Positions 32,510 to 54,190 of a DNA stretch of 64,000 bases are shown piece after piece. This DNA is from a virus (taxonomy: Duplodnaviria; Caudoviricetes): the IMG/VR virus record IMGVR_UViG_2857398645_000001; one strand, 5' to 3'. The notes beneath the pieces were generated by a model. It was not told the origin of the DNA and searched no databases. It saw nothing but the letters and a program-made list of their open reading frames with translations. A program made the translations under genes and the position numbers. Within the stretch, counting starts at the first letter, position 1. Each line of letters opens with the position of its first letter.

Positions 32510-32574
32510 CGTGTGGTCCTTCCGTGGGTTGGTGGGGGCCGGGTTTCCCGTCCCGGCCCCGTGTGGAGTGCGGT

Positions 32575-32724
32575 TTAGATGCGGCGGACGGGGATGCCTG
32601 CCTTGGTGATGGGGGGCTCCTCGGTGTAGTGGTCGGTTTCATCGTCGGTGTTGTAGGCGGCGGCCAGTTCGTTCTCGGCGCGGGCGGCGGCTGCGTCGGT
32701 GATGGCTTCGTAGTAGTCGTACAC
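32575..32724 (-). CDS. Small acidic protein, 49 aa (not in ORF track)
   Basis: GAAAGA RBS; MYDYYEAITDAAAARAENELAAAYNTDDETDHYTEEPPITKAGIPVRRI. Confidence 0.6.
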   Translation of the reverse strand: MYDYYEAITDAAAARAENELAAAYNTDDETDHYTEEPPITKAGIPVRRI

Positions 32725-32798
32725 GGTTCGTCTTTCGGTGTGGGGCTAGTAGGGCTTGGTGGGGGCGGGGGTGATCCCCCGCCCCGGTTCGCTGGGGG

Positions 32799-33053
32799 TT
32801 ATTCGCCTTCGGGTTCTTCGTGGATGAGGGCGCCGCACTTGTCGCAGTCCACGCGCGTTCCGGGGTCGATGTTCCACGGGTAGATCTCGCCGAGTTCCTG
32901 GTTGGCGTCGGCGAGCCGCTGTGCTTCGTGGTGGGGCATGCAGGTGAGGCACATGGCGTGGCCGTTCCAGTCGGTGTAGGCGATGGTGGGGTCGGCGCGG
33001 AGGTCACGGAGGGTGGCGGTCAGCTGTTCGGCGGGGGTGGTGTGGTTGTTCAT
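32799..33053 (-). CDS. Small CxxC-containing protein
   Basis: GAAAGGA RBS; CLTC and CDKC. Confidence 0.7.
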   Translation of the reverse strand: MNNHTTPAEQLTATLRDLRADPTIAYTDWNGHAMCLTCMPHHEAQRLADANQELGEIYPWNIDPGTRVDCDKCGALIHEEPEGE

Positions 33054-33178
33054 CTCGGTCCTTTCGGGGTGGTGTTGGGGCGGGTTCCCGTTCCGCTCCC
33101 AACACCCCAAACACTACACGAAACTACGCACAAGTCAAATCATCGTGTTGCCCTCCGACCCCGCCGGAGGGCGGCGCC

Positions 33179-33388
33179 CTACAGCTCGGAAAGGACCTCT
33201 TCAGGCGAGAACCCGGCCGCGTCGCATACCAGGCCGAATGCCGCTTCGGCGTCGCGGTAGGCGGCGACCGCACCCCAGTCGGGAGCGAATCCACGGTGTG
33301 CTGCCTGGCAGGCGCGGCGCATCGCGTCGTGGGCGTCGGAGATGGAGCGGTATTCGGTTTCGGTGAGCTGGTCGAGGACGCCGGACAT
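33179..33388 (-). CDS. Small acidic helical protein
   Basis: GAAAGGA RBS downstream of repeated promoter. Confidence 0.7.
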   Translation of the reverse strand: MSGVLDQLTETEYRSISDAHDAMRRACQAAHRGFAPDWGAVAAYRDAEAAFGLVCDAAGFSPEEVLSEL

Positions 33389-33539
33389 GCGGTTCCTTTC
33401 GCGGTTGGTGGTGCCGGGTGGGGTTCCCGTCCCTCCCGACACACCAAATACTACACGAAACTACGCACAAATCAAAATCCGTGGGGGAAGGAAAGCCGCC
33501 CCGGCACCACCGGAGCGGCCACACCCGACCCAGACCCGA

Positions 33540-34520
33540 TCAGTCCCCCCGCACCACCTGTTCGATCTCCTCCGCCGACGCACGCCCGCGCACCCTGTCA
33601 TAAGGCAGCGTGTCCGTGATCAGACGCCCATTCGCCTTCCGGCCACGCGGGTTAGCGTGAGCCTCCTCCCAGGTGTAGACACGGCTACCCGTGATCCACA
33701 GGTGCGCCCACGGGATGCTCAGCGACTTCTTGTTCACCCGAAGCACCGGCACCCACTGCCCCCACACCTTCACGTAGTCGCCCTTCGTGAAGTCCTCGGG
33801 CCGCCACACCTTGACCCCCGCCGCTTCGGCCTGGGCGACGTGATCCCGCCAGTAGGCCAGCTCGTCACGCAGCTGGGCGAGGTCGGCCCGCCAGGACGCG
33901 CACGTCTCGGTGTACTGAAAATCGCGCAGCAGGCGGCGCTCCCGCTCCTCCAACCGCTCGATACGCCGCAGCGTCGCCGGGACGCTCTCCCGGAACCGGC
34001 GGCCCTGTTCGGCGGCGGCCTGCTTTCCATCCCAGTAGGACGCTTTACCGGCCTCCCGGTGGGCCCGGTCGTCGGTGGCCATCATCTTCTTGTGGAACGA
34101 GCGCGCCCGGTCGCTGATCAGCGGCTGGCCGATCGGCCATCCCTCGGCCATCTCCTCGAAGCGGGAACGGGCCGCGGCCGATTTCTCGGCTGCCCGGGAG
34201 CGGTAGGTCGCGGCGCGCTCGGCCCGCGCCTCGGCGCGCTCGCTGTTCTCGGCTTCGGCGTCGGCGAACGCCCGCCCGGGGGTGGCGTTGTCGACCTCGA
34301 CGGTGACGGCGAATCCTGCGTCGCGCAGTCGCCGCGCGGCGTCGTCGACGCGCCAGGAGGCGGCCTTGTCGCGGGACCGGGGCACGTACCAGCCGGGGCC
34401 GTCTGGGAGGTTGCGAGAGAACCAGAAGCCTGCCGCTTTGAGATGCTGGTCGGTGCCGTCGCCCCGGGCGGTTCCGTCGGCGATGGTCCCGTCTGCGCGG
34501 GTGTGGCGGATGGTGATCAC
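33540..34520 (-). CDS. DUF3560-like protein
   Basis: ITIRHTRADGT, WYVPRSRD, PIGQPLI, RRIERLE, RVNKKSL motifs. Confidence 0.75.
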   Translation of the reverse strand: MITIRHTRADGTIADGTARGDGTDQHLKAAGFWFSRNLPDGPGWYVPRSRDKAASWRVDDAARRLRDAGFAVTVEVDNATPGRAFADAEAENSERAEARAERAATYRSRAAEKSAAARSRFEEMAEGWPIGQPLISDRARSFHKKMMATDDRAHREAGKASYWDGKQAAAEQGRRFRESVPATLRRIERLEERERRLLRDFQYTETCASWRADLAQLRDELAYWRDHVAQAEAAGVKVWRPEDFTKGDYVKVWGQWVPVLRVNKKSLSIPWAHLWITGSRVYTWEEAHANPRGRKANGRLITDTLPYDRVRGRASAEEIEQVVRGD

Positions 34521-34584
34521 AGTGTGTCCTTTCGCGGTTGGTGGTGTGGGGCCGGTTTCCCGTCCGGCCCCCGTTGTGCGGGGG

Positions 34585-34869
34585 TCAGGCGATGGCGTCG
34601 AGCGCGTCGTCTTCGGCGATCCCGGCGGCCTGGCAGGCGCGGCTGAAGGCGAGCCGTGCGGCGGCCCAGGTGCGGTCCCACCCGGTGGGTGAGGGAACGT
34701 CGGGGTCGGCGAGCAGGGTGGTCGAAGCGGTGAGCTCGCACAGCTCGTGCGTGGTCCGGATGATCTTTCGCTGCTTGGGGGTGAGCCGTTCCCACGCGGC
34801 GGCCGCCCTGTTCGTTTCGGCGGCGCGGAGGGCTGCGGCAAGGGTGTCGACGGCGTGGCTGGTGTGCAC
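34585..34869 (-). CDS. Hypothetical protein
   Basis: GTG start after a GC hairpin and AAGGG. Confidence 0.6.
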   Translation of the reverse strand: MHTSHAVDTLAAALRAAETNRAAAAWERLTPKQRKIIRTTHELCELTASTTLLADPDVPSPTGWDRTWAAARLAFSRACQAAGIAEDDALDAIA

Positions 34870-34931
34870 GGGGGCGCCCTTGGGTGTTGTGGCGGGGGCC
34901 GGGGTTGTGCGCCCCGGCCCCGGGGCGGCGG

Positions 34932-35198
34932 TTAGAGGCACATGACGTCGCTCATGTCGAAGGGGATTCCGGCCGCCTCTGCGGCTTCCTGGGCGGCGGC
35001 GACGCGGGTGTTGAGGCCTGCGAGGACGGCGAGCTTTTCGGCGTCGGTGGGGGCGGGGCCGTCTGCGTTCATGCGGCACCAGTAGGCGCGGGCCTCGGCG
35101 AGGGCGTCAAGGTAGGCGCCGTGGGGGCCGTGGATGATGGCGAGGACGAGGGTGCCGTCGGTGTTGGCGGTCATGGTGAGACCTGCGGTGGTGTCCAT
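34932..35198 (-). CDS. Hypothetical protein
   Basis: GAAAGGA RBS after repeated promoter. Confidence 0.7.
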   Translation of the reverse strand: MDTTAGLTMTANTDGTLVLAIIHGPHGAYLDALAEARAYWCRMNADGPAPTDAEKLAVLAGLNTRVAAAQEAAEAAGIPFDMSDVMCL

Positions 35199-35284
35199 GG
35201 TGGTCCTTTCGGTGGGGGTGGGGGCGGTTTCCCGTTCCGCCCCCGAACAAGAACAACTCTACACCAAACTACGCACAAGTCAAA

Positions 35285-35662
35285 TCATTTGGTGTGGCGA
35301 GAATCCCTCAGATTCTCCGCGATCGCCAACAGCTCGCGGAACAACAGGCAGGCGTTGGCCCCCGCGAAGACATCACCGCTGCGCAGGTAGGCCAGAGCCG
35401 CGTTCTGCATGCGGATGTGCAGCGCCAGGGCCTCGATAACCAGTTCGTCACCGGACTCGCCAATCCCCACGGAGCGGCGGGCGGCGAGTCGGGCGTAGAT
35501 GCCTTCCAGGGTGTCGTTTTCGATGCCACACATGGCGTCTTCCATGCCGGGCAGGTAGATGCCGAGCCGGGTGGCGGCATCGCGGGCGATGTACATGGCG
35601 CAACCCTGGCCGACGCAGGAGGCGTAGCGGACGGCGTTTTCGGGGGTGCTGTCGAAGCCCAT
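35285..35662 (-). CDS. Hypothetical protein
   Basis: GAAAGG RBS after repeated promoter. Confidence 0.7.
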   Translation of the reverse strand: MGFDSTPENAVRYASCVGQGCAMYIARDAATRLGIYLPGMEDAMCGIENDTLEGIYARLAARRSVGIGESGDELVIEALALHIRMQNAALAYLRSGDVFAGANACLLFRELLAIAENLRDSRHTK

Positions 35663-35815
35663 CGGGGGTGCCTTTCGTGGTAGTCCTTGGCGGCCGGCGC
35701 GGGGTTCCCGTCCCGTTCCGACACCAACCACTATACACGAAAACACGCACAAATCAAAACACTTGGGTGGAGAAAAGGGCGACCCCGGCCACCCACCGGA
35801 CACCGCCCCCAACCA

Positions 35816-36409
35816 TCACCCCGAACGCTTGCCCTCCCCCGCCTTCCCCCGCAGCCAAAACCCCGCCTGCAACTCATCCACCCGCCCCCGGCGCCACCTC
35901 TCTACCCGATCGGCTCCCACCTCACCCGGCTCCCACAACCCCGAAGACCTGCGGTAGCGCATGGTCGACTCCGGAGTGCACGGCGCCAGGTACGCGCACA
36001 CCCCCTCCCACGTCAACATGTCCTCAGGCGACCCCACCGGGTCCGGAACGTTCTGCACCCGCCGCCGCACCCGGTCCAGCCCCTCCTCGGGGAACGTCGC
36101 CTTACGGTCGCGCTTGGGCCCGGGCTGCGGCCAGATGTCCGCGTGCTCGCGCGGCCACCGCTCCAGGGTGCGCGGCGACAGGCCGTGCTTGGCCGCATAC
36201 TCGGCGAGGGTGACCCACCCGGGGACGATGCCGCGCGCCTCGTCCAGCGCCTGGGGGTCGAAGAGGGGTTCCCCGCCCCGCTCCCCGACCGGTTCGGGCA
36301 GGGTCTTGTGGCGTTTGAGGGTGCGCCGCAGCTTCTCGGGGTCCAGTGGCTTCTCGGGGTCGGGGCTGCGTGCTGCGGCGTACTCAGCGAGGGTGACAAG
36401 CTGTACCAT
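35816..36409 (-). CDS. Tandem winged-HTH (Xis/MerR-like) DNA-binding protein
   Basis: VTLAEYAA repeated twice plus third unit LTWEGVCAYL..ESTMRYRRS. Confidence 0.65.
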   Translation of the reverse strand: MVQLVTLAEYAAARSPDPEKPLDPEKLRRTLKRHKTLPEPVGERGGEPLFDPQALDEARGIVPGWVTLAEYAAKHGLSPRTLERWPREHADIWPQPGPKRDRKATFPEEGLDRVRRRVQNVPDPVGSPEDMLTWEGVCAYLAPCTPESTMRYRRSSGLWEPGEVGADRVERWRRGRVDELQAGFWLRGKAGEGKRSG

Positions 36410-36573
36410 GGCAGGCGTCCTTTCGTGGGACACGGGGCGGCCGAGTTTCCCGCTTCCAGCCTGCGGGCTGGTCGCCGGTCCTGGACCGGTAGAGGCCGCC
36501 CCACTCTTGCTCTTATGCGCCAGCGGCCCGCCCCCGGTATGTCGGGGCGGGCCGCGCGCTTTCTTCCTTACTT

Positions 36574-37059
36574 CTACACGTGGTCGGTGATCTGTTCCAA
36601 TCGGTCGTCCCAGTAGGCGGCCTCATCGGCGTCCGGCCACCCGGAGAAGGCGGCCACGGCCTTGGCGCGGGAGCGGGCCGAAGCCATCACCGCCTCGACA
36701 CAGCGGTTGATGTTCCGCCCGTAGGGGCTGTTCCACCATGGGATGATCGCGCGGACTCCGAGCGCGGACGCGGCCTCCGAGGTGTCGCGCATGGCGCGCA
36801 CCAGGACGGGGTGGAGGTCGGCGGGGAGCCCGGAGTTGCGGTTTTCGAGTTTTTCTAGGGCGCGTTCGACACGGTGGCAAGCGTCGTCCAAGTCGCGGAA
36901 TTTCGCCGTGTTGGGGTCCAGCCGGGGCAGGTGGATGGCTTTGGGGATGGTGGAGAGCATGTCCCGGACGGCGGGGTAGAGGTCGGAGGCCCAGAGGCGG
37001 TGGAGGCGCTGGAGTTCGTAGTCGGGGGCGGTGGTGAGGTCTCCGGGCCAGATGGTCAT
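36574..37059 (-). CDS. Hypothetical protein
   Basis: GAAAGGA RBS after repeated promoter. Confidence 0.7.
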   Translation of the reverse strand: MTIWPGDLTTAPDYELQRLHRLWASDLYPAVRDMLSTIPKAIHLPRLDPNTAKFRDLDDACHRVERALEKLENRNSGLPADLHPVLVRAMRDTSEAASALGVRAIIPWWNSPYGRNINRCVEAVMASARSRAKAVAAFSGWPDADEAAYWDDRLEQITDHV

Positions 37060-37145
37060 GCTGTGGTTCCTTTCGCGGTTGGTGGCGCCGGGTGGGGTTC
37101 CCGTCCCTCCCGACACACCAAATACTACACGAAACCACGCACAAG

Positions 37146-37562
37146 TCAAACCACGTATTCGGGTGTCGGCCCCACACGCGCCTCCCAGCGGCCCAACATC
37201 ACCCCGACCTGCCCCGCGTGCGCCGCGAAGTCCCGCACACACCACGGCGCCCCCGATCGGGAGTAGGCCGTGTACTGCGTGGCCGCCGAAACCCACTCCC
37301 GGGCGGCCGCCTGCAGGACCACGGTCACCCACCAGCGCCCATCGGCGGTGTGCGCCTCGGCGACCTTGTCGGCCGCCCGCCAGACCAGGGCCTGCCAGCG
37401 GAACACGTCGACGTCGCTGCGCGCCTCGGGGGCGCCGAGGTGGATGCCGTGGGCGGCGAAGGCCCGGACGAGGGTGCGCAGGGTGCCGGCGAGTTGGTCT
37501 TCCATGTCTGCGAGCTGGGCGTGGCGGCCGGGGCGTTCCGGTCGTGCGTGGTGTGCGGTCAT
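37146..37562 (-). CDS. Hypothetical protein
   Basis: GGAGGA RBS after repeated promoter. Confidence 0.7.
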   Translation of the reverse strand: MTAHHARPERPGRHAQLADMEDQLAGTLRTLVRAFAAHGIHLGAPEARSDVDVFRWQALVWRAADKVAEAHTADGRWWVTVVLQAAAREWVSAATQYTAYSRSGAPWCVRDFAAHAGQVGVMLGRWEARVGPTPEYVV

Positions 37563-37635
37563 GGGGTCCTCCGTGGGGTTGGTGGTCGGGGTTCCCGTCC
37601 CGACACACACCACCTTACACGAATCCACGCACAAA

Positions 37636-37848
37636 TCAAACAGGGTTGGGGGTTGCCAACCGCCACCCCTCACCCGTCGACACGAACCGCACCCCCGGCA
37701 GCTCACCAACCCCCAGCCCCGACACCGTGCACAGCACTCCGGCCGGGACCATGACGGGGTCCCCGATCGGATACTCCACCCCCGAGGCCACGCCCGTCAG
37801 CTCAGCAGCATCCCCGTCGACCATCGACACCTCGAACACATCACTCAT
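37636..37848 (-). CDS. Hypothetical protein
   Basis: ORF follows the endonuclease gene; plausible beta-rich composition. Confidence 0.45.
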   Translation of the reverse strand: MSDVFEVSMVDGDAAELTGVASGVEYPIGDPVMVPAGVLCTVSGLGVGELPGVRFVSTGEGWRLATPNPV

Positions 37849-37858
37849 GATCCAAAGG

Positions 37859-38743
37859 CTAGCCGCCACAAGGCGCATCCAAGCGCCGCGCACGCACGGC
37901 GGCGAACAGCCCAGGGTCCCACCCCGCCCGCTGCGCCCGCTCCACCGTCTTCGCATAACACTTGCCCATGTCCGGGTAGACCAGCCCCAACCGCACCGCC
38001 GGAGGATGATCCAGGTAGCCCGCCCACACGCACCCCGCGACGTGCGGGCACTCGTCAATCCAGGCGTTGCAGTGACAGCACAGCAGCCCCCGGACGAGCC
38101 CGGTGAACGGGTCGTGGTCGACGAATTCCCCCGGCCCGCCGCACGCCGCGCACCCCGGCCCGAACTCCTCCGCCAGCGCCCGCCGGGCTCTCCCCCGTGC
38201 ACCGGCGCCACCCAGCCACATGGGCCACACAACAAGGCATCGGGCGGGGCACCGCCGCTGTGGCGGCACCAGGGCGGCGTCGACCGGCTCACCCACCGGA
38301 CGGACCTTCCAGGCAAGGCTGCGTCTACGGCCCTCGCTCCCAGGCGGAGGATGGACGCGGTAGCAGGTACCGTCCGTCCACCAGCAGATGTGCTGTTCGT
38401 GTTTCCAAGGGGCATCCTGGCGGGCGCGCACGGGCCGGTGCCCGCACACCATGCGCCCCTCATCCCACAGGTGGAAACGGCCATCGTCGCCCGCAATAGC
38501 GCGCGGGGCAACACTGCCCCCACTGCGGACCGGGCAGGCGTAGACCGACGACTCCCGCACCCACGCGTCCAGCCCGGCCTGATCGAAGGTGAGCGCGTAT
38601 CGCCACACCAGCAGAAGCCGCCGGTGCTCGGGGAGAGCATCGAGCCCGCGCGGCACCGCGCCAGGGATCGGATTCCGGGCGGCCGGCGCATAGGAGGGCG
38701 GCGCGGCCACGATGCGGTCGGGGGCCATCCGGCCGCCCATCAC
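37859..38743 (-). CDS. Protein with C-terminal endonuclease VII-like domain
   Basis: CAAC..VDHDPFTGLVRGLLCCHCN. Confidence 0.75.
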   Translation of the reverse strand: MMGGRMAPDRIVAAPPSYAPAARNPIPGAVPRGLDALPEHRRLLLVWRYALTFDQAGLDAWVRESSVYACPVRSGGSVAPRAIAGDDGRFHLWDEGRMVCGHRPVRARQDAPWKHEQHICWWTDGTCYRVHPPPGSEGRRRSLAWKVRPVGEPVDAALVPPQRRCPARCLVVWPMWLGGAGARGRARRALAEEFGPGCAACGGPGEFVDHDPFTGLVRGLLCCHCNAWIDECPHVAGCVWAGYLDHPPAVRLGLVYPDMGKCYAKTVERAQRAGWDPGLFAAVRARRLDAPCGG

Positions 38744-41382: not shown

Positions 41383-41385
41383 GGG

Positions 41386-43077: not shown

Positions 43078-44199
43078 CTATCCGGGCGCCGCGTGGGTGA
43101 GCGGGCGGTCGGGGTTGTCGAGCCATACCTGCTGGCCCTCGGCGGTGACGGTCAGGCCGAACCGGTCGTGTTCAGGGCGGCCCGCCTTGAGCCACCACGC
43201 ATAGGCGGCCGCCAGCTCGTCGAACAGCGACCGCGGCCCGTGCTGGCGCACACGGTACTCCCGGACCGTCTCCGGGGTGATCCGCCAGGACGCCCACGAC
43301 CCCGATTCGGGATCCATCAGGTAAACAGTGAACCGGCCATCGGAGACCTCACCGTCGTGCACCACGGTGGACAGCATCCTTGGCACCCGCAGGCCGACCG
43401 CGAACGACGCGTCGAAGTCCGCGACCGGCTCATAGGGGTGCAGGTCGGTGACGGACTCGACGAAGTCGTGGCCGGGCAGCACCCGGTCCTCCACCGCACC
43501 GTGCGGGGTGCGCTGCGCGCGGACCCACATGAACCCGGCGTCGCCGCCGAAGCGGCCCTGCGCGGACCCGTCCGGCCCGACGTCGAGCCGCAGCAGCGTC
43601 CCGTTGTGGAACGCTGTCCCCCATGGGGTGACGATTCGCCCTCCGGGCTGGGCCTGGGCCACCCACGTGTGGGGCACCTGCTGCACTGCGGCCGTGGAGA
43701 TCACCCTGTCGTAGGGTGCGCCCTCGGGCCATCCGGCCATCCCGTCACCGGCGACCACCTGCGGGTGGAACCCGGCCGCAGCGATGCGCTCGCGCGCGGT
43801 CTCGGCCAGGTCAGGGTCGACTTCTATGGTGGTGACGTTCTCCTCGCCCAGGCGGGCGCACAGCAGCGACGCGTTCCACCCCGTGCCAGTGCCGACCTCC
43901 AGGACCCGGTGCCCCTCCTCGGCATTCAGAGCGTCCAGCATCATCACGACGATCGACGGTTTGGACGCCGAGGAGGACACATAGCCGTCCCCCGATCCGG
44001 TGCCGTCGTCGAGCTGGGTGATGACGGGGGCGTCGGCGTTGGCGAGTTCAGCCCACCGGGCAGGGTTGGTCGCCCGGTCGACAGGGCGGCGCTGCCCATC
44101 CCACACCTGGTCGGGGATGAACGCGACGCGCGGCACCCGCTCGAACGCTTCGCTCCACGCTGGGGGCACCTGGTGCGGTTCGAGGAGGGGGGTGGCCAC
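43078..44199 (-). CDS. PIMT-family O-methyltransferase (imiditide-type)
   Basis: VPRVAFIP, TQLDDG, SSASKP, VLEVGTGTGWNA, AGFMWVRAQR, GPRSLFDELAAAYAWW..RFGLTV. Confidence 0.92.
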   Translation of the reverse strand: MATPLLEPHQVPPAWSEAFERVPRVAFIPDQVWDGQRRPVDRATNPARWAELANADAPVITQLDDGTGSGDGYVSSSASKPSIVVMMLDALNAEEGHRVLEVGTGTGWNASLLCARLGEENVTTIEVDPDLAETARERIAAAGFHPQVVAGDGMAGWPEGAPYDRVISTAAVQQVPHTWVAQAQPGGRIVTPWGTAFHNGTLLRLDVGPDGSAQGRFGGDAGFMWVRAQRTPHGAVEDRVLPGHDFVESVTDLHPYEPVADFDASFAVGLRVPRMLSTVVHDGEVSDGRFTVYLMDPESGSWASWRITPETVREYRVRQHGPRSLFDELAAAYAWWLKAGRPEHDRFGLTVTAEGQQVWLDNPDRPLTHAAPG

Positions 44200-46012: not shown

Positions 46013-46225
46013 TCACCCGCCGCGCAAACCGGCCTGCCGCAGCCGCGCCCGGTCGTTGAGCCAGGTGCGGGAGCATGACGGCGAGGAGGCGGTGATGACG
46101 GGGCGGCGGCTGCCGGGCGGGTACCACGCCCAGTGCTGCGAACCCGGTCGGCGCACCACCCTCCACCCGGCGTTTCTCGCGGCCCGGTACAGTGCCCGGT
46201 ACTCGCGGGGCACTCTCGCGGTCAT
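46013..46225 (-). CDS. HicA-like protein
   Basis: AGWRVVRRPGSQHWAWYPP..SSPS..ARLRQAGL. Confidence 0.7.
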   Translation of the reverse strand: MTARVPREYRALYRAARNAGWRVVRRPGSQHWAWYPPGSRRPVITASSPSCSRTWLNDRARLRQAGLRGG

Positions 46226-46965
46226 GGCTGGTCCGCGGCCGGTTCGGTGAGGATGGGCCACCCGAAGTTGACGGTTCCGGCGCGGGGGTCGTCGTGCTTC
46301 TCCCAGTGGGCTTTGAGGCTGCGCGCTTGCTCCTCGGCCCAGTCCACTTGCAGGTCATGGAGCCGGTCCGGTGTGAGCTGTCCGATCCACGCGTGGCGTG
46401 CGCCGATCCGGTAGGCGACGCGGACCGCGGCCAGGGCGTCGGCCTCAGCCCCGTGTGCGTCCTGTTCGGACAGCTCCACTTTGTAGTGCCGGGCGACATC
46501 GACAAGCTTGCGGGAGCCCTTCCGGTACCGGTCCGCCTGCTTGTCGAGGATCTTCGGGTCGACCACCGGGCGTAGTTGCTCGATCTGCCCGGCGAGGCCG
46601 GGGTGGCCGTGCCGGTGCAGCTCGGAGGCGAGGAGGGTCAGGTCATAGGAGGCGTTCATGGCGATCGTGGTGGCGCCATCGTCGGCCAGGCCCAGGAGGG
46701 CGCGGGCGATCTCCGCGACCCCCTGTGCGGCGTCCTGCCCGCCTTCCCGGGCCTGGAGTGTCGTCACCCCGTGCACCGCGGCAGCTTCATCCGGGATGGA
46801 CACCCCGGGGTTGAGCAACCACGTGCGGGTCGCGGTTTCCCTGCCGCCGGCGCCGTCGATGTCGAGGACGGCCGCGGTGACGATCCGGTCCGAGAACGGG
46901 TCGGTTCCGGTGGTTTCCAGGTCGAACCCGGACAGGCGGCGGGTGAACCAGGGGGTGGGGGTCAT
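46222..46965 (-). CDS. DEDDh 3'-5' exonuclease (DnaQ-like)
   Basis: FDLETTG, NASYD, AHGAEADA motifs. Confidence 0.92.
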   Translation of the reverse strand: MTPTPWFTRRLSGFDLETTGTDPFSDRIVTAAVLDIDGAGGRETATRTWLLNPGVSIPDEAAAVHGVTTLQAREGGQDAAQGVAEIARALLGLADDGATTIAMNASYDLTLLASELHRHGHPGLAGQIEQLRPVVDPKILDKQADRYRKGSRKLVDVARHYKVELSEQDAHGAEADALAAVRVAYRIGARHAWIGQLTPDRLHDLQVDWAEEQARSLKAHWEKHDDPRAGTVNFGWPILTEPAADQP

Positions 46966-47154
46966 TTGGGGGTTCCTGTTCTAGTTCCGGGGCCGGGCGG
47001 GCAGGTGTCCCGCCCGGCCCCGGGTGTTGTGTCGGCGGGACTTAGGCGTAGGACGCACAGGCGGTGTTGATCTCGGCCTGGTCGGGGCCACCGAGGACGT
47101 TTGCTCTGCGCGTGTGGACAGGGTGGCCGTGTGGAAGCGGTAGAGGTTCGGTCG

Positions 47155-48859: not shown

Positions 48860-48929
48860 GGTGGTTCTCTCTCGGGGGTGCGGCCCCGACCACAACAGGG
48901 GGCCGGGGCCGCGTCTCGGAGTACGGCGT

Positions 48930-49706
48930 CTACTTCTTGCGTCCGGAGTCCCGACGCTTCAGGGTCCGCTCGTAGTCGGTGAAACGGGCTTTCGCTATCA
49001 CCGACCGGTCGACGCTGCGCAGCACGATCCCCTCGGGTCGGCCGCCCGCTCCGTCGTCCAGCGCCACACGGGTCGACGGGAGCCGTTCGGCGAGGAAGTC
49101 CCGCATCGGCGCGATGCCACTCGGCAGGTCGGCGGCGTTGATGGCGCCGAGCCGCGGAGTGAGGGGGATCTGCTCCTTATCAGCCACCACGTGCAACGCG
49201 TCCTCGGGTAGGAAGGACTGCCCGCCCTCCTCGCGCCACGCGGAGATGCGGGCACGGTCCCAGCCCATAAGGCTGCCTGGCACATCGGCGACGTCGAACA
49301 TGCGGTACCCGACCGTGCGCTGGCCGGTGTACTGCTTACTGGCTCCGGTGACCTTCCCGCCGTACACCTCGAGGTAGTAGACGCGCACCCCCTCGTCGGG
49401 CGGTGTGATGCGGTCGGCCAGGTCCCGTAGGGCGTCCACGATCCCCAGTGCCGGGTTCGCGATGAGGTCGCCCCGGGCGTGGAGAAGTTCCTCGCGGCTG
49501 CCGATGAGGTAATCCCCGGTGGGGAAGATGATGAGGCGCGAGTTCGTACCGTCCACCTTCTCCGTCAGAATCACCTCCCCTGCGAATTCGGTGGCCGTCT
49601 CCAGCAGGCCGCCGTTCTTCTTGTCGAGCTCGTGGTAGGTGGAGATCGACGGGTACTTCGTGGCGGAGTTCAGGGCGTCCAGGTCGATGGTTCGGGGGTC
49701 GATCAT
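48930..49706 (-). CDS. ATP-dependent RNA ligase family protein
   Basis: KYPSI, TEKVDGTN (motif I), LEVYG, MFDV, EGIVLR, IAK. Confidence 0.85.
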   Translation of the reverse strand: MIDPRTIDLDALNSATKYPSISTYHELDKKNGGLLETATEFAGEVILTEKVDGTNSRLIIFPTGDYLIGSREELLHARGDLIANPALGIVDALRDLADRITPPDEGVRVYYLEVYGGKVTGASKQYTGQRTVGYRMFDVADVPGSLMGWDRARISAWREEGGQSFLPEDALHVVADKEQIPLTPRLGAINAADLPSGIAPMRDFLAERLPSTRVALDDGAGGRPEGIVLRSVDRSVIAKARFTDYERTLKRRDSGRKK

Positions 49707-49790
49707 CGGGTGTTCCTTTCTCTTATGGGTCCTGCTTCGGCGGACGACGTGTCCCACAACAGGGAGCAGGTTTCGTGGGATCGGGGGCGC

Positions 49791-50219
49791 TCAGGACCGC
49801 CCAGTACGAGGCGGTTGGAAGGTCCACCACCCGTCGTAGCCCTCGGGCACGGTGGGGAAGGCGTCCAGCATGGGGCGCAGCACCGACAAATGCCGCTCCA
49901 TCACCTCGGGCTCCTGGGCGCCCCAGTAGCGTTGCCCGTCCCACCGGCCGTGGCAGTCGCCGCCGTAGCGGCCGTCGAGGTCCGCGCCCAACACGTCGAG
50001 CGGGTCGTCGAGGTCGAGGAGCCGGGGTAGGTAGTGGCTCCACAGCTTGAGGTCTCCGATGCACGCCCGAGTCACGCCGCCCTGCCTGCGGTACCAGACC
50101 GCGTTGGCCTGTCCGGTGAAGGCGATGCGGTCGCCGCGTGGGTGCTGGGTGCCGGTGATCGTGGCGAGGTCGATGGCGTAGAGGCCTCGGGAGATCAGGA
50201 ATCGGGTTTCGCGGTGCAC
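49791..50219 (-). CDS. Hypothetical protein
   Basis: GTG start after AAGAGAG; Trp/Gly-rich globular composition. Confidence 0.6.
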   Translation of the reverse strand: MHRETRFLISRGLYAIDLATITGTQHPRGDRIAFTGQANAVWYRRQGGVTRACIGDLKLWSHYLPRLLDLDDPLDVLGADLDGRYGGDCHGRWDGQRYWGAQEPEVMERHLSVLRPMLDAFPTVPEGYDGWWTFQPPRTGRS

Positions 50220-50422
50220 GTTGGTTCTCTCTTGTCGGGTGTGCGGGCTGTAGCTAGAGGGGTGAGCACGACATCGCCGACGTCGCGGGGGGCGAGCTTG
50301 TTCAGGTGCCGACCGCAGGCTTTGGCCTCGCCCGGGTACCGCCACAGGAGTTGCCACGTCGCTGGGTGCGAGCACTCGTCGCACCAGGGGCCGGGGTGGG
50401 TGTCGCGGTAGTAGCGCATCAC
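50195..50422 (-). CDS. Small zinc-binding protein
   Basis: WCDEC..ACGRH. Confidence 0.5.
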   Translation of the reverse strand: MMRYYRDTHPGPWCDECSHPATWQLLWRYPGEAKACGRHLNKLAPRDVGDVVLTPLATARTPDKREPTCTAKPDS

Positions 50423-50916
50423 GCAACCTCCGCGTAGAAAGGGGCGTCGAACAGCTCATCCGGCCAGTTCTCGGGGCGCAGCCACTCCCACCGCAGCCAC
50501 CGGTCGGTGGTGACGCTGTCCAGCACCTCGTCATCGGTGATGGGGGTGGCGCGGGTCTCCGGCGGGACCGTGCCCGGGGTGAAGGGGTCGCCCGGGTCCT
50601 GGTGGTCGGGGCCGACGACGCGGTACCGGTGTGCGTTGTAGCCGTTGGCGCGGTGCCACTCGGCGCGTTCGGCGCGCCTTCGGCGCATACGGTCCAGGAT
50701 CTGGGCTTCCGTGGGGTGCGCGAACGTGTGCCAGCCAACTCCGGTCTTGTACCGGCTCCAGTGCTCACGAGCGCTCACCCCGCACCACCGGCACCCTGAC
50801 GGCGCCCTGTCACCGAACGGGGGTTTCGGTGCGAGCTTCCCGGCTGCTTTGGCTTCGGCCACGTCGGCGGACCCGGAGCCATTGCAGGCGGGGCATGGGC
50901 GGGTGAGCGGGGTCAT
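50419..50916 (-). CDS. Cys-containing hypothetical protein
   Basis: CPACNGSG and PSGCRWCG motifs. Confidence 0.6.
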   Translation of the reverse strand: MTPLTRPCPACNGSGSADVAEAKAAGKLAPKPPFGDRAPSGCRWCGVSAREHWSRYKTGVGWHTFAHPTEAQILDRMRRRRAERAEWHRANGYNAHRYRVVGPDHQDPGDPFTPGTVPPETRATPITDDEVLDSVTTDRWLRWEWLRPENWPDELFDAPFYAEVA

Positions 50917-51011
50917 TTCTCGATCTTTCTGTGTGCGGTGGTCCCGGGGCCGCCCCCACCCGAAAACCGTGGGGCGGCCCCGGGTGAGCTAGAGGTAGGT
51001 GATGTCGGCGG

Positions 51012-51374
51012 TTAGGGGGCGGTGTGTTCGGCGTCGGCCAGGTAGGCCCGGGCGCGCGCGATCGCGGGATTCTCCCCGGCGGGTTGCTGGGTTCCGGGGT
51101 CAAGGTGCTCGATACCGTCCAGCCACCCGTGGCGGCGGCCCACAGCAAGGTCGGCGCCTTCGGACGGGTAGCCGAGGACGAGGGCCCAGCGCAGGCGGGC
51201 GCGGGCGAGCTTGTCACCAGGCCCCCACTCGCGGGAGTGGGCGGCCCAGCGTTTGGCTTCGGCGAGGTCTTCCCAGGCGCGGCGGACCTCCGCGATGACG
51301 GTCCGCCGGATCTCCGCGTAGCGGGGGTCGGCCTCCCCGAGGGGGACCTGCCCGGGGATGCGGCGCCGGTTCAC
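51012..51374 (-). CDS. Hypothetical protein
   Basis: GTGA-coupled ORF. Confidence 0.55.
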   Translation of the reverse strand: MNRRRIPGQVPLGEADPRYAEIRRTVIAEVRRAWEDLAEAKRWAAHSREWGPGDKLARARLRWALVLGYPSEGADLAVGRRHGWLDGIEHLDPGTQQPAGENPAIARARAYLADAEHTAP

Positions 51375-51655
51375 CGGTCCGCCGGGGGGTCGGGGACCGG
51401 AACGAACCCGTTGGCCTCCAGGTGCTTTTCCACGTAGAACCGGCCGTCGGGTTTCCGCACGATGTAGTCATCGACGGTGGCGTTCCTCCGGAACCGGAAC
51501 GCGGCGCCGTGGATGAGCGGCAGCACGATCCAGGGGTCTCCGAAAGCGTCACGTCCGCCGACCCGGCCTCCGGCCCATTGGGCGACCTGTTCGGCGTTGT
51601 CGGGGGTGATTCGGACGGCTCGCACTTCGAGCCGGTACACGGTGGGGGTTATCAA
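51371..51655 (-). CDS. Conserved phage hypothetical protein
   Basis: VRAVRIT..VAQWAGG..DYIVRKPDGRFY. Confidence 0.6.
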   Translation of the reverse strand: MITPTVYRLEVRAVRITPDNAEQVAQWAGGRVGGRDAFGDPWIVLPLIHGAAFRFRRNATVDDYIVRKPDGRFYVEKHLEANGFVPVPDPPADR

Positions 51656-51686
51656 GGGGTCCTGCCTCTCCGGGGGATGGGTGGGG

Positions 51687-51926
51687 TCAGGTGGTGGAGG
51701 CGGCGGCCATCTCACGCACGTGCGCCTCTTCGCGGAGGGCCCGCGCGAAGCGTTCGGCGGCGCGGGCGAGCTCTTCGACCTGGGCGGGGGTGGCATCGTC
51801 GGCGGGCCGGATCACGGTGTCGCTGACCTCTTCCAATCCGCGGCCCAGGTGGAGTTCGGGCAGCGGCTGCTGTGGGGTGTCGGCCCAGGCGTCGGGTGTG
51901 GACTGGGCGAGGATGATGCAGGTCAT
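51687..51926 (-). CDS. Hypothetical protein
   Basis: GAGGAG RBS. Confidence 0.55.
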   Translation of the reverse strand: MTCIILAQSTPDAWADTPQQPLPELHLGRGLEEVSDTVIRPADDATPAQVEELARAAERFARALREEAHVREMAAASTT

Positions 51927-51995
51927 AAGGGGCTCCTCAGGGGTGGGAGTTGGAGGGGTGGCCCCGGCGCGAGGGGGAAAGGCGCCGGGGCCGGT

Positions 51996-52331
51996 TCACC
52001 CCCACGCCACGTCGGCGCCGCGGTGGTGCACCCATTCGGCGAGGTCGTGGAGTTCACGCAGCCGCATGGCCAGAAGGCCGGGGCTGCGCCCTCCGTAGAC
52101 CACGCGCCCGTCGTGGACGGGCGGTCGGCCGTGGGCGTCGTCCGTTGCGGTGTCGACGAGCGCGAGGGCGGTCAGGACCCGCCCCAGGAAGACCGGGGCG
52201 GGTTCTACACCGCCGGGGTAGTCGGTGTCGTGCCCGAGGAGTCCGAGAAGCGTGGCGGCGTTGCCGTTGTTCACGTTGACCTGCGGGTCGTTGTCACCGA
52301 GGTGGCCGGCGGGGTAGAAGGTGACGGACAT
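51996..52331 (-). CDS. Hypothetical protein
   Basis: GGAGGA RBS; VNVNNGNAATLLGLLG. Confidence 0.65.
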   Translation of the reverse strand: MSVTFYPAGHLGDNDPQVNVNNGNAATLLGLLGHDTDYPGGVEPAPVFLGRVLTALALVDTATDDAHGRPPVHDGRVVYGGRSPGLLAMRLRELHDLAEWVHHRGADVAWG

Positions 52332-52449
52332 GTGTTCCTCCCTTTGTGTTGGAATCGGTGGCCGTTCGGTGGCCGGGAGGAACGGGTGTCCGTTGTGGGG
52401 TCCGCTGTTGAGTTGTCAAGGATCTGAGCTTGGGGGTTCACCCCCGCAC

Positions 52450-52490
52450 TGTGTATATACACACTATCATGGGCTCTGTATATACACAAC
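52450..52490 (-). promoter_or_regulatory. Promoter TTGTGT-17-TAGTGT with two TGTATATACA palindromes
   Basis: Read directly; a second copy lies at 54191..54231. Confidence 0.8.
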
Positions 52491-52495
52491 TCGTG

Positions 52496-53023
52496 TCATG
52501 CAGCCTCCCCCGAGGCATCGCCCGAACCGATCTCGTGCCTCAACACCTCCCCCAACAACAGCTCCCCCCGCTCGAAAGCGCACCGCATCGCCTCGAACGC
52601 CGCCTCGCGCTCCGGCCCCTCCTCCGGCCGGTCAACCCGCACCGGCGACGGCTTGCTCTCCACCTCCGCCCACGGCACCGGCACGATCTCCCCACGCACC
52701 ACCACCCCGCCGTACTGGCGAACCTGGTCCTTCACCGACTTCAACGTGGAAGGCCGGATCACCTCGACCACCTCATCGGCCATGTGCTCCTTGGCCCACG
52801 CCACCGCCGCCGCCTCATCGACCCGCACCGAGCGCGTGTCCTTGGGCTGGGAGACGGTCCCCACCCGAACCAGGCGGCCATCCGGCCCCGGCAAGGCGAC
52901 GCCCGAGCGGTCGCCCTCCATCAGCCCGGCCCCGGCCTCGGCACGCACCCGGTCATAGACGTCAGCGACCTCTCCTTTCAGCATCGCCAGCACTGCGGCA
53001 CGGAGCTTGGGGTCAGGCTGCAT
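52496..53023 (-). CDS. Hypothetical protein in recombination module
   Basis: Follows the annealase; VDEAAAVAW..EVIRPS..GEIVP. Confidence 0.65.
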   Translation of the reverse strand: MQPDPKLRAAVLAMLKGEVADVYDRVRAEAGAGLMEGDRSGVALPGPDGRLVRVGTVSQPKDTRSVRVDEAAAVAWAKEHMADEVVEVIRPSTLKSVKDQVRQYGGVVVRGEIVPVPWAEVESKPSPVRVDRPEEGPEREAAFEAMRCAFERGELLLGEVLRHEIGSGDASGEAA

Positions 53024-53810
53024 CGGACATCTCCTCTTCCTTCTTGTTCTGGGTGAGCATGCGGCGGCGCTTGTCGATCTCGGCGCGCAGCCCCTTGCCG
53101 TCGTGCTGGGTCATCTCCAACGCGTCGTATTTCGCTTTGGCCTCGGCTTCCAGGACGACCAGCTCAGCGTCGTCCTCAGCCCCCTGGGCGCGGCGCAGGG
53201 CGTCCAGCAGCCACGCCTTGTCGGTGACGCGCTCGGGCTGCTCGCCCTTGCGCAGGCGCCGCCGAGCCTTGCCCCCTTGGGCGATCGCGTTCTCGGCCGT
53301 GGGGTCGGCGCGCTCCCCCTTGGACCACAGGTTGAGCGCGACCCCGAAGCGCATAGCGGCGTTGCGAAGGGCGTCACCAATGAGCACCTTGACCGCGTCG
53401 GCCTGGTTCGACGGGCAGGACCCGTAGCCCTTGCGGGTGATGCCGCCGACGGTCAGGGTGATCCACAAGCCGACCGGGTTGCCGTTGCGGTCGTGGTCGA
53501 GGATGGGCATCCCGTTGTCGTCGGTAGCGAGGAAGTCCCAGTTCCACGCGGGGTCGACGTCGAGAAGGCGGCCGGTGACATCGGCGTGTCCGACGAAGTC
53601 GATGTGGATGTGCTGGGGGCTGATCCACTGGTCGCACACCTTGCACCTGGACTTGCTGTGCTTGGCGCATTCGCCGGACCGGGATTCGCGGCAGCCTCCG
53701 CAGGTGACGCGGGGCAGCTTCCCGACGACGTCGTCGGAGAAGTGGGCGCGCAGCCGGTTGGAGGTGTCCAGGAGGGCCTGGAGCGCGTCTGTGTCACTCG
53801 GTGTGGTCAT
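53013..53810 (-). CDS. Rad52/Rad22-like single-strand annealing protein
   Basis: DFVGHADVTGRLLDVDPAWNW, LTVGGITRKGYG, GDALRNAAMRFGVALNLW. Confidence 0.85.
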   Translation of the reverse strand: MTTPSDTDALQALLDTSNRLRAHFSDDVVGKLPRVTCGGCRESRSGECAKHSKSRCKVCDQWISPQHIHIDFVGHADVTGRLLDVDPAWNWDFLATDDNGMPILDHDRNGNPVGLWITLTVGGITRKGYGSCPSNQADAVKVLIGDALRNAAMRFGVALNLWSKGERADPTAENAIAQGGKARRRLRKGEQPERVTDKAWLLDALRRAQGAEDDAELVVLEAEAKAKYDALEMTQHDGKGLRAEIDKRRRMLTQNKKEEEMSDAA

Positions 53811-53881
53811 TGGTTCCTTTCTTGGGTCGGCAGGAAGCAGGGGGCCGCCCCGGGGACGGTCCGGGGCGGCCCGGGTGGGGG

Positions 53882-54145
53882 TCAGTCGTCCCAGTGGCCG
53901 GGGGCTCCGCAGTCGGGGCTGGCGAAGTGGTCGAGGGCGAGGTCGTCGATCTCGTTGATCAGGGCGGTGGTGATGGCGAGGGTGCCGTCCAGTTCGTAGA
54001 GGACTTCGTTGCAGGTGCACCGCACGTCGCACAGGCCGATCTCCAGTGCGCCGGGGAGTTCGTTGAGCAGGGCCTCGTAGAAGGCCTCTCTCATGTCGTC
54101 GGTGTCGATGAGGTGGGTGGCCGGGGCGGTGAGGGTGGTGGTCAT
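53882..54145 (-). CDS. Small acidic protein
   Basis: GGAGGA RBS; 5' leader similar to that of 37146..37562. Confidence 0.7.
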   Translation of the reverse strand: MTTTLTAPATHLIDTDDMREAFYEALLNELPGALEIGLCDVRCTCNEVLYELDGTLAITTALINEIDDLALDHFASPDCGAPGHWDD

Positions 54146-54190
54146 GGGGTCCTCCGTGGGGTGGTGGGCGGGGGTTTCCCGTCCCCCGCT

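Follow-up and report, generated by a model that had tools for sequence, protein, structure and literature searches.

A leader hairpin with a conserved tip and covarying stems, repeated before genes of related actinobacterial prophages

What kind of element is a small hairpin with a fixed loop that recurs at the head of one phage gene leader after another? In the window (the whole 64,000-nucleotide stretch of phage DNA analysed here), an earlier note had described nine such hairpins on the minus strand and had read them as a structured, protein-binding RNA element, possibly for boxB-like antitermination, translation enhancement, processing or stability. The observation itself is confirmed and proves stronger than first described; the interpretation as a whole is partly supported.

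Hairpin copies and leader architecture

The window contains 14 instances of the 8-mer ACGGGAAM, while 100 shuffles yield 5.46 ± 2.25 and none of them reached 14 (maximum 10). The minus-strand hairpin sites previously noted account for nine of these instances (32544, 33084, 33423, 34556, 35228, 35704, 37097, 37591 and 54175). All are flanked by complementary arms, with a mismatch or bulge in four, and at every one a start codon preceded by an SD-like sequence lies 28-41 nt past the 8-mer. As had been stated, the leaders stand behind promoters or between genes: six of the nine follow a conserved promoter block, two follow stop codons and one follows an operator-flanked promoter, three of the six blocks also being picked up by a generic sigma-70 scan. 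With a covariance model of the hairpin alone, the nine score 32.6-41.7 bits and the best remaining match 22.4 bits (21 matches at E ≤ 10, whole genome), and the 5.9-Mb host genome outside the prophage holds no hairpin with a close covariance score. The original count was short by one, since covariance modelling found a further copy, making ten in the window; none lies among the structural or late phage genes. The copies and their surroundings, with R2 scores in bits, are as follows.

55946-55979 (-): tenth leader hairpin, with loop UAAGGGGAAG on an 11-bp stem, followed by a C/A tract, the SD-like ACGGAGA and the ATG of gene 55489-55908; R2 24.4 (sequence and fold)
54192-54295: divergent control region with three palindrome-like operators TGTGTATAT(A/G)C at 54285-54295, 54217-54228 and 54192-54203 (sequence reading), separating the plus-strand gene 54305-54571 from the hairpin-led early transcript
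54162-54194 (-): leader hairpin, loop ACGGGAAA, downstream of the operator-flanked early promoter, heading the 87-aa gene 53882-54145; R2 33.5
37612-37639 (-): conserved promoter block, TTGATT-16 nt-TAAGGT, its -10 end placed by analogy with sites of the sigma-70 scan
37578-37610 (-): leader hairpin, loop ACGGGAAC, heading gene 37146-37562; R2 34.3
37122-37149 (-): conserved promoter block, TTGACT-16 nt-TAGTAT
37084-37116 (-): leader hairpin, loop ACGGGAAC, stem interrupted by an A.A mismatch, heading gene 36574-37059; R2 41.5
35777-35794: terminator-like hairpin directly upstream of the next promoter block
35730-35757 (-): conserved promoter block, TTGATT-16 nt-TATAGT
35691-35723 (-): leader hairpin with an internal loop, tip loop ACGGGAAC, heading gene 35285-35662; R2 32.9
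35256-35283 (-): conserved promoter block, TTGACT-16 nt-TAGAGT
35215-35247 (-): leader hairpin, loop AACGGGAAA, heading gene 34932-35198; R2 34.3
34543-34575 (-): intercistronic hairpin without promoter, loop ACGGGAAA, beginning right behind a stop codon and heading the DUF3560 gene 33540-34520; R2 40.5
33448-33475 (-): conserved promoter block, TTGATT-16 nt-TAGTAT
33410-33442 (-): leader hairpin heading gene 33179-33388; R2 43.4
33111-33138 (-): conserved promoter block, TTGACT-16 nt-TAGTGT
33071-33103 (-): leader hairpin, loop AACGGGAAC, its stem carrying a bulged A and a long GGTGTTGGG/CCCAACACC base, heading gene 32799-33053; R2 28.8
32531-32563 (-): intercistronic hairpin without promoter, 9-bp stem, loop ACGGGAAA, after a stop codon and heading the Xis/HTH-like gene 32045-32509; R2 38.3
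32011-32035: terminator-like hairpin at the end of the hairpin region

Rfam 15 gave no match at gathering thresholds over the whole window, and at E ≤ 10 over positions 32000-38500 the hairpin-overlapping matches were two to DicF, whose 19.3 bits fall below the gathering score of 48; no known family was matched. Homologous cassettes occur in four related prophages (G398, G461, G467 and G469), with 9-15 copies each and one more in a second G467 region, and the element was not found in 150 other host-family genomes. A search of actinophage genomes, which the earlier note had proposed, came back negative for phiC31 (NC_001978; best match to R2 at E 0.25) and the two other actinophages examined. 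The cassettes are located in a mosaic accessory region, the proteins common to the five prophages mostly share only some 30-85% identity, and we found no gene present in all carriers and absent from hairpin-free relatives. The carriers are temperate siphovirus prophages that make up a small lineage within a single actinobacterial family. The outlying copy some 17 kb away was correctly described as lying under a different promoter type, and this arrangement is conserved: in G461 the first early transcript carries its hairpin behind TGTAGCTACA palindromes and ahead of genes syntenic with the window's early genes, in the same placement and with a different stem.

A placement census of 53 copies gives the order of the cassette as a near-consensus, sigma-70-like promoter with conserved spacer, the stem-loop, a stretch rich in C and A, a Shine-Dalgarno sequence and the start codon, the last two being present downstream of 52 of the 53; every copy points in the direction of the genes. 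Distances are constrained, with 23-44 nt from loop end to start codon and 3-22 nt from helix end to SD, and the spacing to the start codon is kept whether the preceding element is a promoter (33 copies), a stop codon (18) or neither (2), several of these promoter anchors being uncertain and at least three having odd hexamers. In the 33 promoter-linked copies pairing starts -3 to +15 nt (median 6) past the predicted -10 hexamer, around the predicted transcription start; as the offset from the -10 box reaches 15 nt, some helices would not begin right at the 5' end. Of the 512 nt that separate helices from SD sequences, 92% are C or A (310 C, 162 A, 28 G and 12 T).

Covarying stems and the conserved tip

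That stem sequences differ while pairing is kept is borne out both in the window's nine copies and in the homologous prophage cassettes. In a gapless, loop-anchored alignment of the nine, both sides have changed in six of nine stem pairs. Its covariation score of 0.253 is attained by none of 500 shuffles, which give 0.083 ± 0.040, and slid controls do not exceed 0.136. A gapless alignment of 16 copies from three phages (A4) has 78.8% pairing cells against 59.6 ± 2.7 when shuffled, both sides changed in 8 of 10 pairs, and a score of 0.421 against 0.125 ± 0.031 (again 0 of 500; slid controls ≤ 0.131), while a model-fitted alignment from five prophages (A7; 47 rows, 45 of them members) reaches 83.4% pairing against 59.8% and a score of 0.470 against 0.115, all relative to shuffles in which composition is controlled column by column only. 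Compensatory change is found in the outer eight stem pairs of the 45 aligned members. Helices in the census contain 16 G.U pairs and 4 A.C or C.A mismatches, a comparison in which the helix-extension rule favours G.U. Because the 5' arm is strongly biased towards G (352 G-C against 58 C-G pairs in the census), the stems are not fully free and part of the pairing would arise from composition alone. The covariation results support selection on pairing of the stem, with a tip that is conserved on stems that turn over.

The tip, an A-N-GGGAA-N loop closed by two G-C pairs, is near-invariant among the 45 aligned members. In A7 the first A is present in all 47 rows, the three G in 46, 46 and 45, the two following A in 46 each, and the closing pairs in 46 and 44. 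The loop ACGGGAA(A/C), which had been called invariant, is so only within this phage; the relatives show A-N-GGGAA-N, of which it is a lineage variant. In a few cassettes of the relatives the hairpin bears a different loop (G398 near 7182, G467 near 5849, and G469 near 5266, where one G is missing), so the tip is not indispensable. Compensatory stems and a conserved tip, within the phage and among its relatives, uphold the reading as a structured element, and a strand-specific one. Elsewhere, G067 has a lone terminator-like hairpin with an identical tip, and intercistronic hairpins without the tip also occur in the window phage, for example at 46989-47020.

Candidate roles for the leader hairpin

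We tentatively favour, as a real possibility, a cis-acting leader RNA module that would act post-transcriptionally on the next cistron, with the tip as a putative factor recognition site. In the mRNA, a G/U-rich segment at or near the predicted 5' end would pair with the opening stretch of the C/A-rich leader to form a stable stem-loop that stops about 10 nt short of the SD, and the remaining leader, nearly without G or U, would probably be unstructured. The stem would need only to pair, and the tip would be held by selection as the recognition site for a putative trans-acting factor, phage- or host-encoded. We infer from the sequence patterns that the element acts as RNA, binds such a factor and affects message stability or translation: it may shield the message from decay that depends on the 5' end or runs 5'-to-3' and may govern how well the start site is used, and the common tip could place all tagged phage messages under joint control.

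A hairpin that blocks 5'-end-dependent RNases and sequesters the G/U-rich transcript start, with no factor at its tip and a loop retained for folding or through shared descent, would suit a helix that begins near the predicted start site (median 6 nt past the -10 box), stems that are stable and vary freely, and a combination of 5' stem-loop, open leader and strong SD like that of the T7 gene 10 and ompA leaders; the hairpin of G067 further suggests that the loop may just be favourable. Such passive stabilisation or insulation is nevertheless unlikely, as it needs no fixed loop, yet the tip is kept in 44-47 of 47 rows across five prophages while the stems have turned over; moreover, gene conversion behind a loop shared by descent would make the stems uniform too, and 18 of the 53 copies are operon-internal rather than at 5' ends. 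Antitermination of the boxB or nut type, one of the functions listed in the earlier note, has the nascent hairpin bring a phage antiterminator to RNA polymerase for terminator read-through. The position just past promoters, including an operator-controlled early promoter in two phages, agrees with it, as do terminator-like hairpins before two downstream promoters and at the end of the region, and a purine-rich conserved tip on a variable stem recalls the N-type reading of boxB. Against it, a net-charge scan of the predicted window proteins turned up no small early protein rich in arginine at its N-terminus, each phage has ten to fifteen sites, many 300-1000 bp apart with their own promoters, and distance is fixed to the next start codon rather than to terminators, which antitermination has no need of. 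The region's terminator-like hairpins, 7 against 3.8 ± 2.5 in shuffles, are not clearly more numerous, and the tip is near-identical in five diverged phages, whereas lambdoid boxB/N specificities differ. We consider this proposal quite unlikely.

Cleavage or halting at the hairpin by RNase III, RNase E or a phage endoribonuclease, yielding units with the same protected leader, would make sense of the 18 of 53 copies directly behind stop codons within operons, since promoter-proximal and intercistronic use together would yield uniform 5' ends, and the prophage does encode an RNA ligase (48930-49757) and an RNase T-like exonuclease (46222-46965). No endoribonuclease candidate is common to the carriers, however, and the window phage has the intercistronic hairpin at 46989-47020 without the tip; we judge a processing site improbable. 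It is very improbable indeed that the element works as DNA, whether as a regulator binding site past the start site or as a selfish MITE-like repeat. The tip in the relatives forms a tandem GGAAG-GGAAG that could be two half-sites, the cassettes lie in the mosaic accessory region, and the cassettes of the 33410-33442 hairpin and of 37084-37149 differ at only 3 positions (sequences read by eye), pointing to recent duplication or conversion. A duplex site would leave the compensatory arm changes unexplained, as well as the single orientation and the fixed spacing to the start codon, and the stems differ among copies, unlike those of transposed MITEs, for which unsystematic inspection noticed no terminal repeats or target duplications.

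Relation to known systems

The CsrA/RsmA site is an A-N-GGA-N hairpin loop, but a six-frame search of the whole genome with PF02599 gave no match at E ≤ 1, with control genomes responding. STAB-SD-like 5' stabilisers are SD mimics that bind the 16S 3' end; here the anti-SD duplex reaches -6.6 kcal/mol for the window type and -9.7 for the AAGGGAAG type, and composition-matched shuffles are equal or better in a fraction of 0.37-0.43. Tests for a kissing partner and for rRNA mimicry were likewise negative. A MITE/REP-like repeat does not fit differing stems in one orientation with just one near-identical cassette pair seen. The U-tract requirement of intrinsic terminators in actinobacteria, as given in the available part of the source (PMC3993855), does not fit C/A tracts that follow the helices, with only 12 T in 512 nt.

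Like phiC31, the window phage is an actinophage with a repeated promoter before many early genes, but the phiC31 leaders, with a repeated CCGGGTTGCCGACTCCCTTAC promoter and palindromic CIRs, have no GGGAA stem-loop. In E. coli ompA and T7 gene 10, a stem-loop no more than a few nt from the 5' end precedes an unstructured leader and a strong SD, in T7 as a version repeated at a promoter class; we know of no factor-read conserved loop or intercistronic reuse for either. The present hairpin differs from them in its invariant tip, its C/A-only spacer and its intercistronic copies.

With nut sites it shares a small promoter-proximal RNA hairpin with a purine-rich conserved loop and a pairing stem, behind an operator-controlled early promoter. 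Lambda N binds the boxB hairpin via an arginine-rich motif, according to the accessible portion of PMC11480772. The present loop has 7-9 nt rather than five, is common to diverged phages and occurs in ten or more copies, and among small early window proteins the net-charge scan, a crude one that remote analogues may escape, found no Arg-rich N-terminus, its top scorers being structural proteins or N-terminal extensions of longest ORFs. Nut sites are few, lie ahead of terminators beside a boxA and work at any distance from the next start codon; here there are 10 copies in the window and 9-15 in relatives, with 23-44 nt from loop to start.

A parallel in context is offered by Cluster K mycobacteriophages with their start-associated sequences (SAS) and extended SAS (ESAS) (Pope et al. 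2011, PMC3203893), to which analogous motifs were described in Cluster EF phages of Microbacterium (Jacobs-Sera et al. 2020, PMC7302621). In the portions of these papers at hand, SAS is a fixed 13-bp asymmetric motif that occupies the RBS 3-7 bp from the start, and the inverted repeats of ESAS are conserved in sequence, the authors seeing little support for RNA pairing. The hairpin lacks the 13-bp RBS motif: its tip lies 23-44 nt before the start with a separate SD of GAAAGG or GGAGG type downstream, and its arms vary and covary; there is no similarity in sequence. As far as those portions go, the two are nonetheless alike in being multi-copy (10-19 per genome for the SAS/ESAS kind), in one orientation, among non-structural actinobacteriophage genes, just before the starts of unrelated gene families and shared among related phages, and a further resemblance is the outer GGG...CCC symmetry that flanks a GGA core rich in purines.

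Leader stem-loops and their promoters in the window prophage

The nine minus-strand hairpins that the earlier note had listed as sharing an ACGGGAA(A/C) loop are borne out, and they account for nine of the 14 occurrences of the 8-mer ACGGGAAM in the window, compared with 5.46 ± 2.25 in shuffled sequence (14 was reached in 0 of 100 shuffles). All nine 8-mers are flanked by complementary G/C-rich arms, with a mismatch or bulge in four, and a start codon lies 28-41 nt past each of them, preceded by a Shine-Dalgarno (SD) sequence of the GAAAGGA- or GGAGGA- type. A hairpin-only covariance model (R1) separates all of them from the whole-genome background, scoring them at 32.6-41.7 bits and the next best place in the genome at 22.4 bits. 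The claim that pairing is kept while stem sequence changes also stands: in a gapless loop-anchored alignment, six of nine stem pairs show changes on both sides, and the covariation score is 0.253 against 0.083 ± 0.040 for shuffled alignments and at most 0.136 for slid controls. A broader model (R2, 16 copies from three phages) adds a tenth window copy at 55946-55979 with the loop UAAGGGGAAG.

A highly conserved block (TTGAYT, 16 nt, TAnnnT) immediately precedes six of the nine copies, and a generic sigma-70 scan recovers three of these six. The copies at 34556 and 32544 follow stop codons without a promoter, and the promoter ahead of the copy at 54175 is set among three TGTGTATAT(A/G)C palindrome-like repeats, with a divergent plus-strand gene opposite. 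The spacer of the promoter block is itself conserved across carrier prophages (GCGTAGTTTCGTG in the window, GGTTAGAGTTCGTG in relatives); an additional -10-like TAGnnT sits inside it, the real -10 box following about 10 nt downstream, and the spacer looks like an operator or activator site. Candidate regulators of the block are three Xis/MerR-like helix-turn-helix (HTH) proteins conserved alongside it (28478-28732, 32045-32509 and 35816-36433). The proteins common to the hairpin regions of the carriers are DUF3560, Xis/MerR-like HTH, EndoVII-like and HNH endonuclease proteins, with no evident RNA binder among them.

Two window cassettes on the minus strand, 33385-33490 and 37059-37164, differ by our reading at three positions from promoter to ribosome-binding site (RBS) and lead unrelated genes, which indicates a recent duplication or gene conversion. 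At 46989-47020 on the same strand, a strong 12-bp intercistronic hairpin has a stop codon before it, an RBS after it and no GGGAA in its loop, so the tip is absent from some junction hairpins of the window phage.

The host genome comprises 5.9 Mb in two contigs at 71% G+C, and most of the window belongs to a siphovirus-type prophage whose transcription runs along the minus strand. Its structural genes include a large terminase with an intein, portal, capsid and a 1620-aa ORF that we take to be the tape measure by size, position and synteny; its early genes include a replication initiator, a DnaC-like loader, SSB and a single-strand annealing protein, and a RusA-like resolvase, an RNA ligase and an exonuclease are also present. 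The hairpins are confined to the non-structural part. In the terminase ORF (20669-23401, minus strand, 910 aa), Hint and LAGLIDADG homing-endonuclease domains precede the ATPase domain, hence the intein. The RNA ligase, exonuclease and tRNA or tRNA-like genes may form an RNA-repair or anti-defence set. There are also two paralogous genes of the protein-L-isoaspartate O-methyltransferase (PCMT) family; the one that separates the hairpin region from the late genes runs on the opposite strand.

Promoter blocks and accessory genes of the window
33111-33138, minus, conserved promoter block
33448-33475, minus, conserved promoter block
35256-35283, minus, conserved promoter block
35730-35757, minus, conserved promoter block
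37122-37149, minus, conserved promoter block
37612-37639, minus, conserved promoter block (the block also occurs in loci L061, L194, L197 and L198)
48930-49757, minus, RNA ligase (PF09414)
46222-46965, minus, RNase T/DnaQ-like exonuclease
28386-28460, minus, odd tRNA-like gene with unreadable anticodon (ARAGORN)
58674-58765, plus, tRNA-Pro among early genes
30485-31690, plus, PCMT-like gene
43078-44199, minus, PCMT-like gene

Carriers and conserved anatomy

In the phage reference collection, blastn in near and distant modes gave no DNA-level match to the 5.6-kb hairpin region, and no phage there has a capsid or portal more than about 46% identical to that of the window. A portal search of 400 same-family genomes returned one close relative from another genus, G398 (68% identity), and one distant one. 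Synteny links the G398 and window prophages. At the equivalent place G398 has at least nine hairpins, whose stems differ from those of the window and whose loop reads A(A)GGGAAG. A C/A tract, SD and start come after every one of them, and most lie behind a promoter block visibly homologous to that of the window. A pattern taken from the stem base common to both led to a third carrier, the IMG/VR provirus G461, with 14 copies within 10 kb and one 22 kb upstream. Repeated TGTAGCTACA palindromes precede this upstream copy, and its genes are syntenic with those after window 54175, so that the early-promoter placement is conserved despite different stems; the distant window copy is under a different promoter type, as had been proposed. 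R2 run over 51 genomes of the genus of G398 gave two more carriers, G467 (at least ten copies and a further one elsewhere on the contig, in a second region) and G469 (at least nine). The second region of G467 (contig C31, L199/L200) is phage-like, with SSB, RusA-like and other early-gene homologues at 19-39 kb, and its hairpin (~16416-16448 in L199) lies ~78 kb from the main cluster; G467 may therefore hold a second carrier prophage in one genome.

Among 150 other family genomes from 90 genera sampled with R2 there were no multi-copy carriers and one strong match, a lone hairpin in G067, and the element is absent from two genomes of the window's own genus. R1 at E ≤ 0.1 gave matches in 20 of 150 relatives, single except in G068 (four, on four contigs) and G055 (two), and all 27 inspected loci were without the C/A tract and RBS context. 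Lone host hairpins bearing the tip outside cassettes occur at G067:C32 (L210, ~1759-1791, minus) and G000:C1:2962448 (minus), with apical motifs GG-AAGGGAAG-CC and GG-AGGGGAAG-CC; the G067 hairpin, followed by a T-rich tail, looks like a terminator.

In pattern searches of the wider collections, promoter block plus loop gave one viral and eight genome-contig matches, all due to chance (unrelated phyla, no hairpin). Loop plus RBS gave 18 IMG/VR loci with no high-GC multi-copy relative, about 11 of them belonging to a different, low-GC phage element. That element, on about eleven viral contigs of 35-40% GC (L042, L044, L045, L048-L054, L056), has a ~12-bp stem capped by a GAAA tetraloop, ACGG being part of the stem and not of the loop; it follows a TATATATACGTATAT box and leads a conserved gene that starts MRVLVFG. 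Stem base plus GGGAA gave 13 viral loci, of which only two are real, both in G461, and at least 117 metagenome stretches, with the cassette context in none of those inspected. An EndoVII-like alignment search of IMG/VR gave no relative, and single cassettes searched against the phage reference collection at E ≤ 10 matched only generic RBS-like stretches.

In the gapless alignment of 16 copies from three phages, 78.8% of cells pair compared with 59.6 ± 2.7% after shuffling, eight of ten pairs show changes on both sides, and the covariation score is 0.421 against 0.125 ± 0.031 (slid controls at most 0.131). An alignment from five prophages, which leans towards structure because it was fitted to the model, gives 83.4% against 59.8% and a covariation score of 0.470 against 0.115; two of its 47 rows, window 46989 and 33476(+), were judged non-members. 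The tip is nearly invariant in this alignment: of the two closing pairs, one is G-C in 46 rows and the other in 44 of the 47, and the first loop base is A in every row, followed by A (27), C (11), G (3) or no base (6). Of the loop columns after these, the three for G are conserved in 46, 46 and 45 rows and the two for A in 46 each, and the last base is G (35), A (6) or C (5). The loop ACGGGAA(A/C), which the earlier note had called invariant, is thus one variant among carriers. One G467 copy has ACGGGAAA amid AAGGGAAG copies and the tenth window copy shows the other loop type, so the second loop base is not strictly phage-specific. Odd loops at cassette positions (AAAGCAGAA at ~7182 of L061 in G398, AACCCA at ~5849 of L197 in G467, AGGAAG at ~5266 of L198 in G469) are natural variants and potential ready-made controls.

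A strict census, which leaves out the tenth window copy with its extra U, counts 53 copies in the regions examined: 33 preceded by the promoter block (with doubtful -10 anchors in at least three), 18 at most 30 nt after a stop codon without the block, and two in neither class. In most promoter-linked copies the loop lies 13-20 nt downstream of the end of the -10 hexamer (median 17). The first paired base is -3 to +15 nt after the hexamer (median 6), at about the predicted transcription start. An SD-like sequence and start codon follow 52 of the 53, with 3-22 nt from helix end to SD and 23-44 nt from loop end to start. The helix-SD spacer is composed of 310 C, 162 A, 28 G and 12 T, and among G-C pairs the G is on the 5' arm in 352 and on the 3' arm in 58.

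What the stem-loop may do

Several known identities could be set aside. No Rfam family matches, at gathering thresholds or in a permissive scan. Terminators are excluded by the absence of a U tract after the hairpins of the census, and a CsrA site with its partner by a genome without CsrA; pairing to the anti-SD and mimicry of a host rRNA hairpin were likewise rejected. A search for a kissing partner with a TTCCC loop found only the hairpins' own antisense and a few weak hairpins, mostly of 5 bp. Three other actinophages lack the element. In Streptomyces phage Abt2graduatex2, the best single-cassette match, the hairpins overlap a TTGCAC -35 box and have no GGGAA loop. Early-region stem-loops of phiC31 were reportedly described by Ingham, Hunter and Smith in 1995; we inspected that genome and the element is absent. 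The nearest isolated relative, Arthrobacter phage Kuleana, gives a best R2 match of only E 0.099. A 113-aa ORF between terminase and portal (20397-20738, minus) matches a Kuleana gene annotated 'RNA binding protein' at E 5e-12, and by eye its N-terminus is hydrophobic and its C-terminal pattern Sm-like, but being common to hairpin-free Kuleana it does not track the hairpins and was rejected as their partner.

Both the tip and the spacing between hairpin and following translation start are invariant, and this spacing is kept at transcript 5' ends and inside operons alike. Together they point to an effect on the downstream cistron at the RNA level, on stability, translation or both, and not on transcription initiation or terminator read-through. 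In the stem, the G/U-rich beginning of the message would pair with the initial portion of a long C/A-rich leader, and what remains of the leader, nearly without G or U, would be unable to fold onto the SD. A purely passive stabiliser is a minority reading: it is hard to see why selection would hold a 12-nt tip constant in five diverged prophages whose stems turn over, unless something recognises that tip. That same pattern leads us to favour a factor-binding leader module, to which we give slightly less than an even chance. The boxB-like antitermination site raised in the earlier note now seems improbable: no N-like arginine-rich early protein was found, and the fixed spacing to the start points away from terminator read-through. 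We consider a processing site quite improbable and an element acting at the DNA level very improbable. Within helices, G.U pairs outnumber A.C or C.A mismatches by 16 to 4 in the census, which fits folding of the sense strand, though the extension rule favours G.U.

The factor-binding module has a more specific and rather speculative form, which we think unlikely, in which the GGGAA tip is a 'self' tag: a dedicated phage or host protein would recognise GG-A(N)GGGAA(N)-CC at 5' ends or cistron junctions of early and accessory transcripts, and tagged messages would be selectively stabilised or translated, or spared phage-induced decay. If true, this would amount to a phage-wide post-transcriptional regulon in Actinobacteria, which are not known to possess Hfq or CsrA, and would suggest a mechanistic model of how the SAS/ESAS-type motifs of actinobacteriophages, long unexplained, might work.

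Relation to known gene-start motifs

The question of function is experimentally tractable: covariation is clear, the 12-nt tip is sharply defined, and five or six prophage regions supply at least 53 copies. Should a factor read the tip, tip and factor would form a new RNA-protein recognition pair and add phage-wide post-transcriptional control in high-GC Gram-positives. Even with a passive hairpin, the cassette of promoter, hairpin, C/A leader and SD is a compact, natural and portable expression module for actinomycetes. We found no earlier description of the element in the openly available full-text literature. It is new within known kinds, namely repeated gene-start-associated phage motifs and leader hairpins, and its structure is well supported.

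Unexplained multi-copy gene-start motifs recur in actinobacteriophages, and here the RNA-structure reading has clear covariation. Among published motifs, those that come closest are the SAS/ESAS described in Cluster K mycobacteriophages (PMC3203893) and in Cluster EF Microbacterium phages (PMC7302621), which are likewise multi-copy, orientation-specific and placed at the starts of non-structural genes only, with no known function. As described there, SAS occupies the RBS itself, whereas the present stem-loop is separate from the SD and upstream of it; and while the authors of the Cluster K study find little support for RNA pairing of the ESAS arms (PMC3203893), the element described here is a covarying stem-loop.
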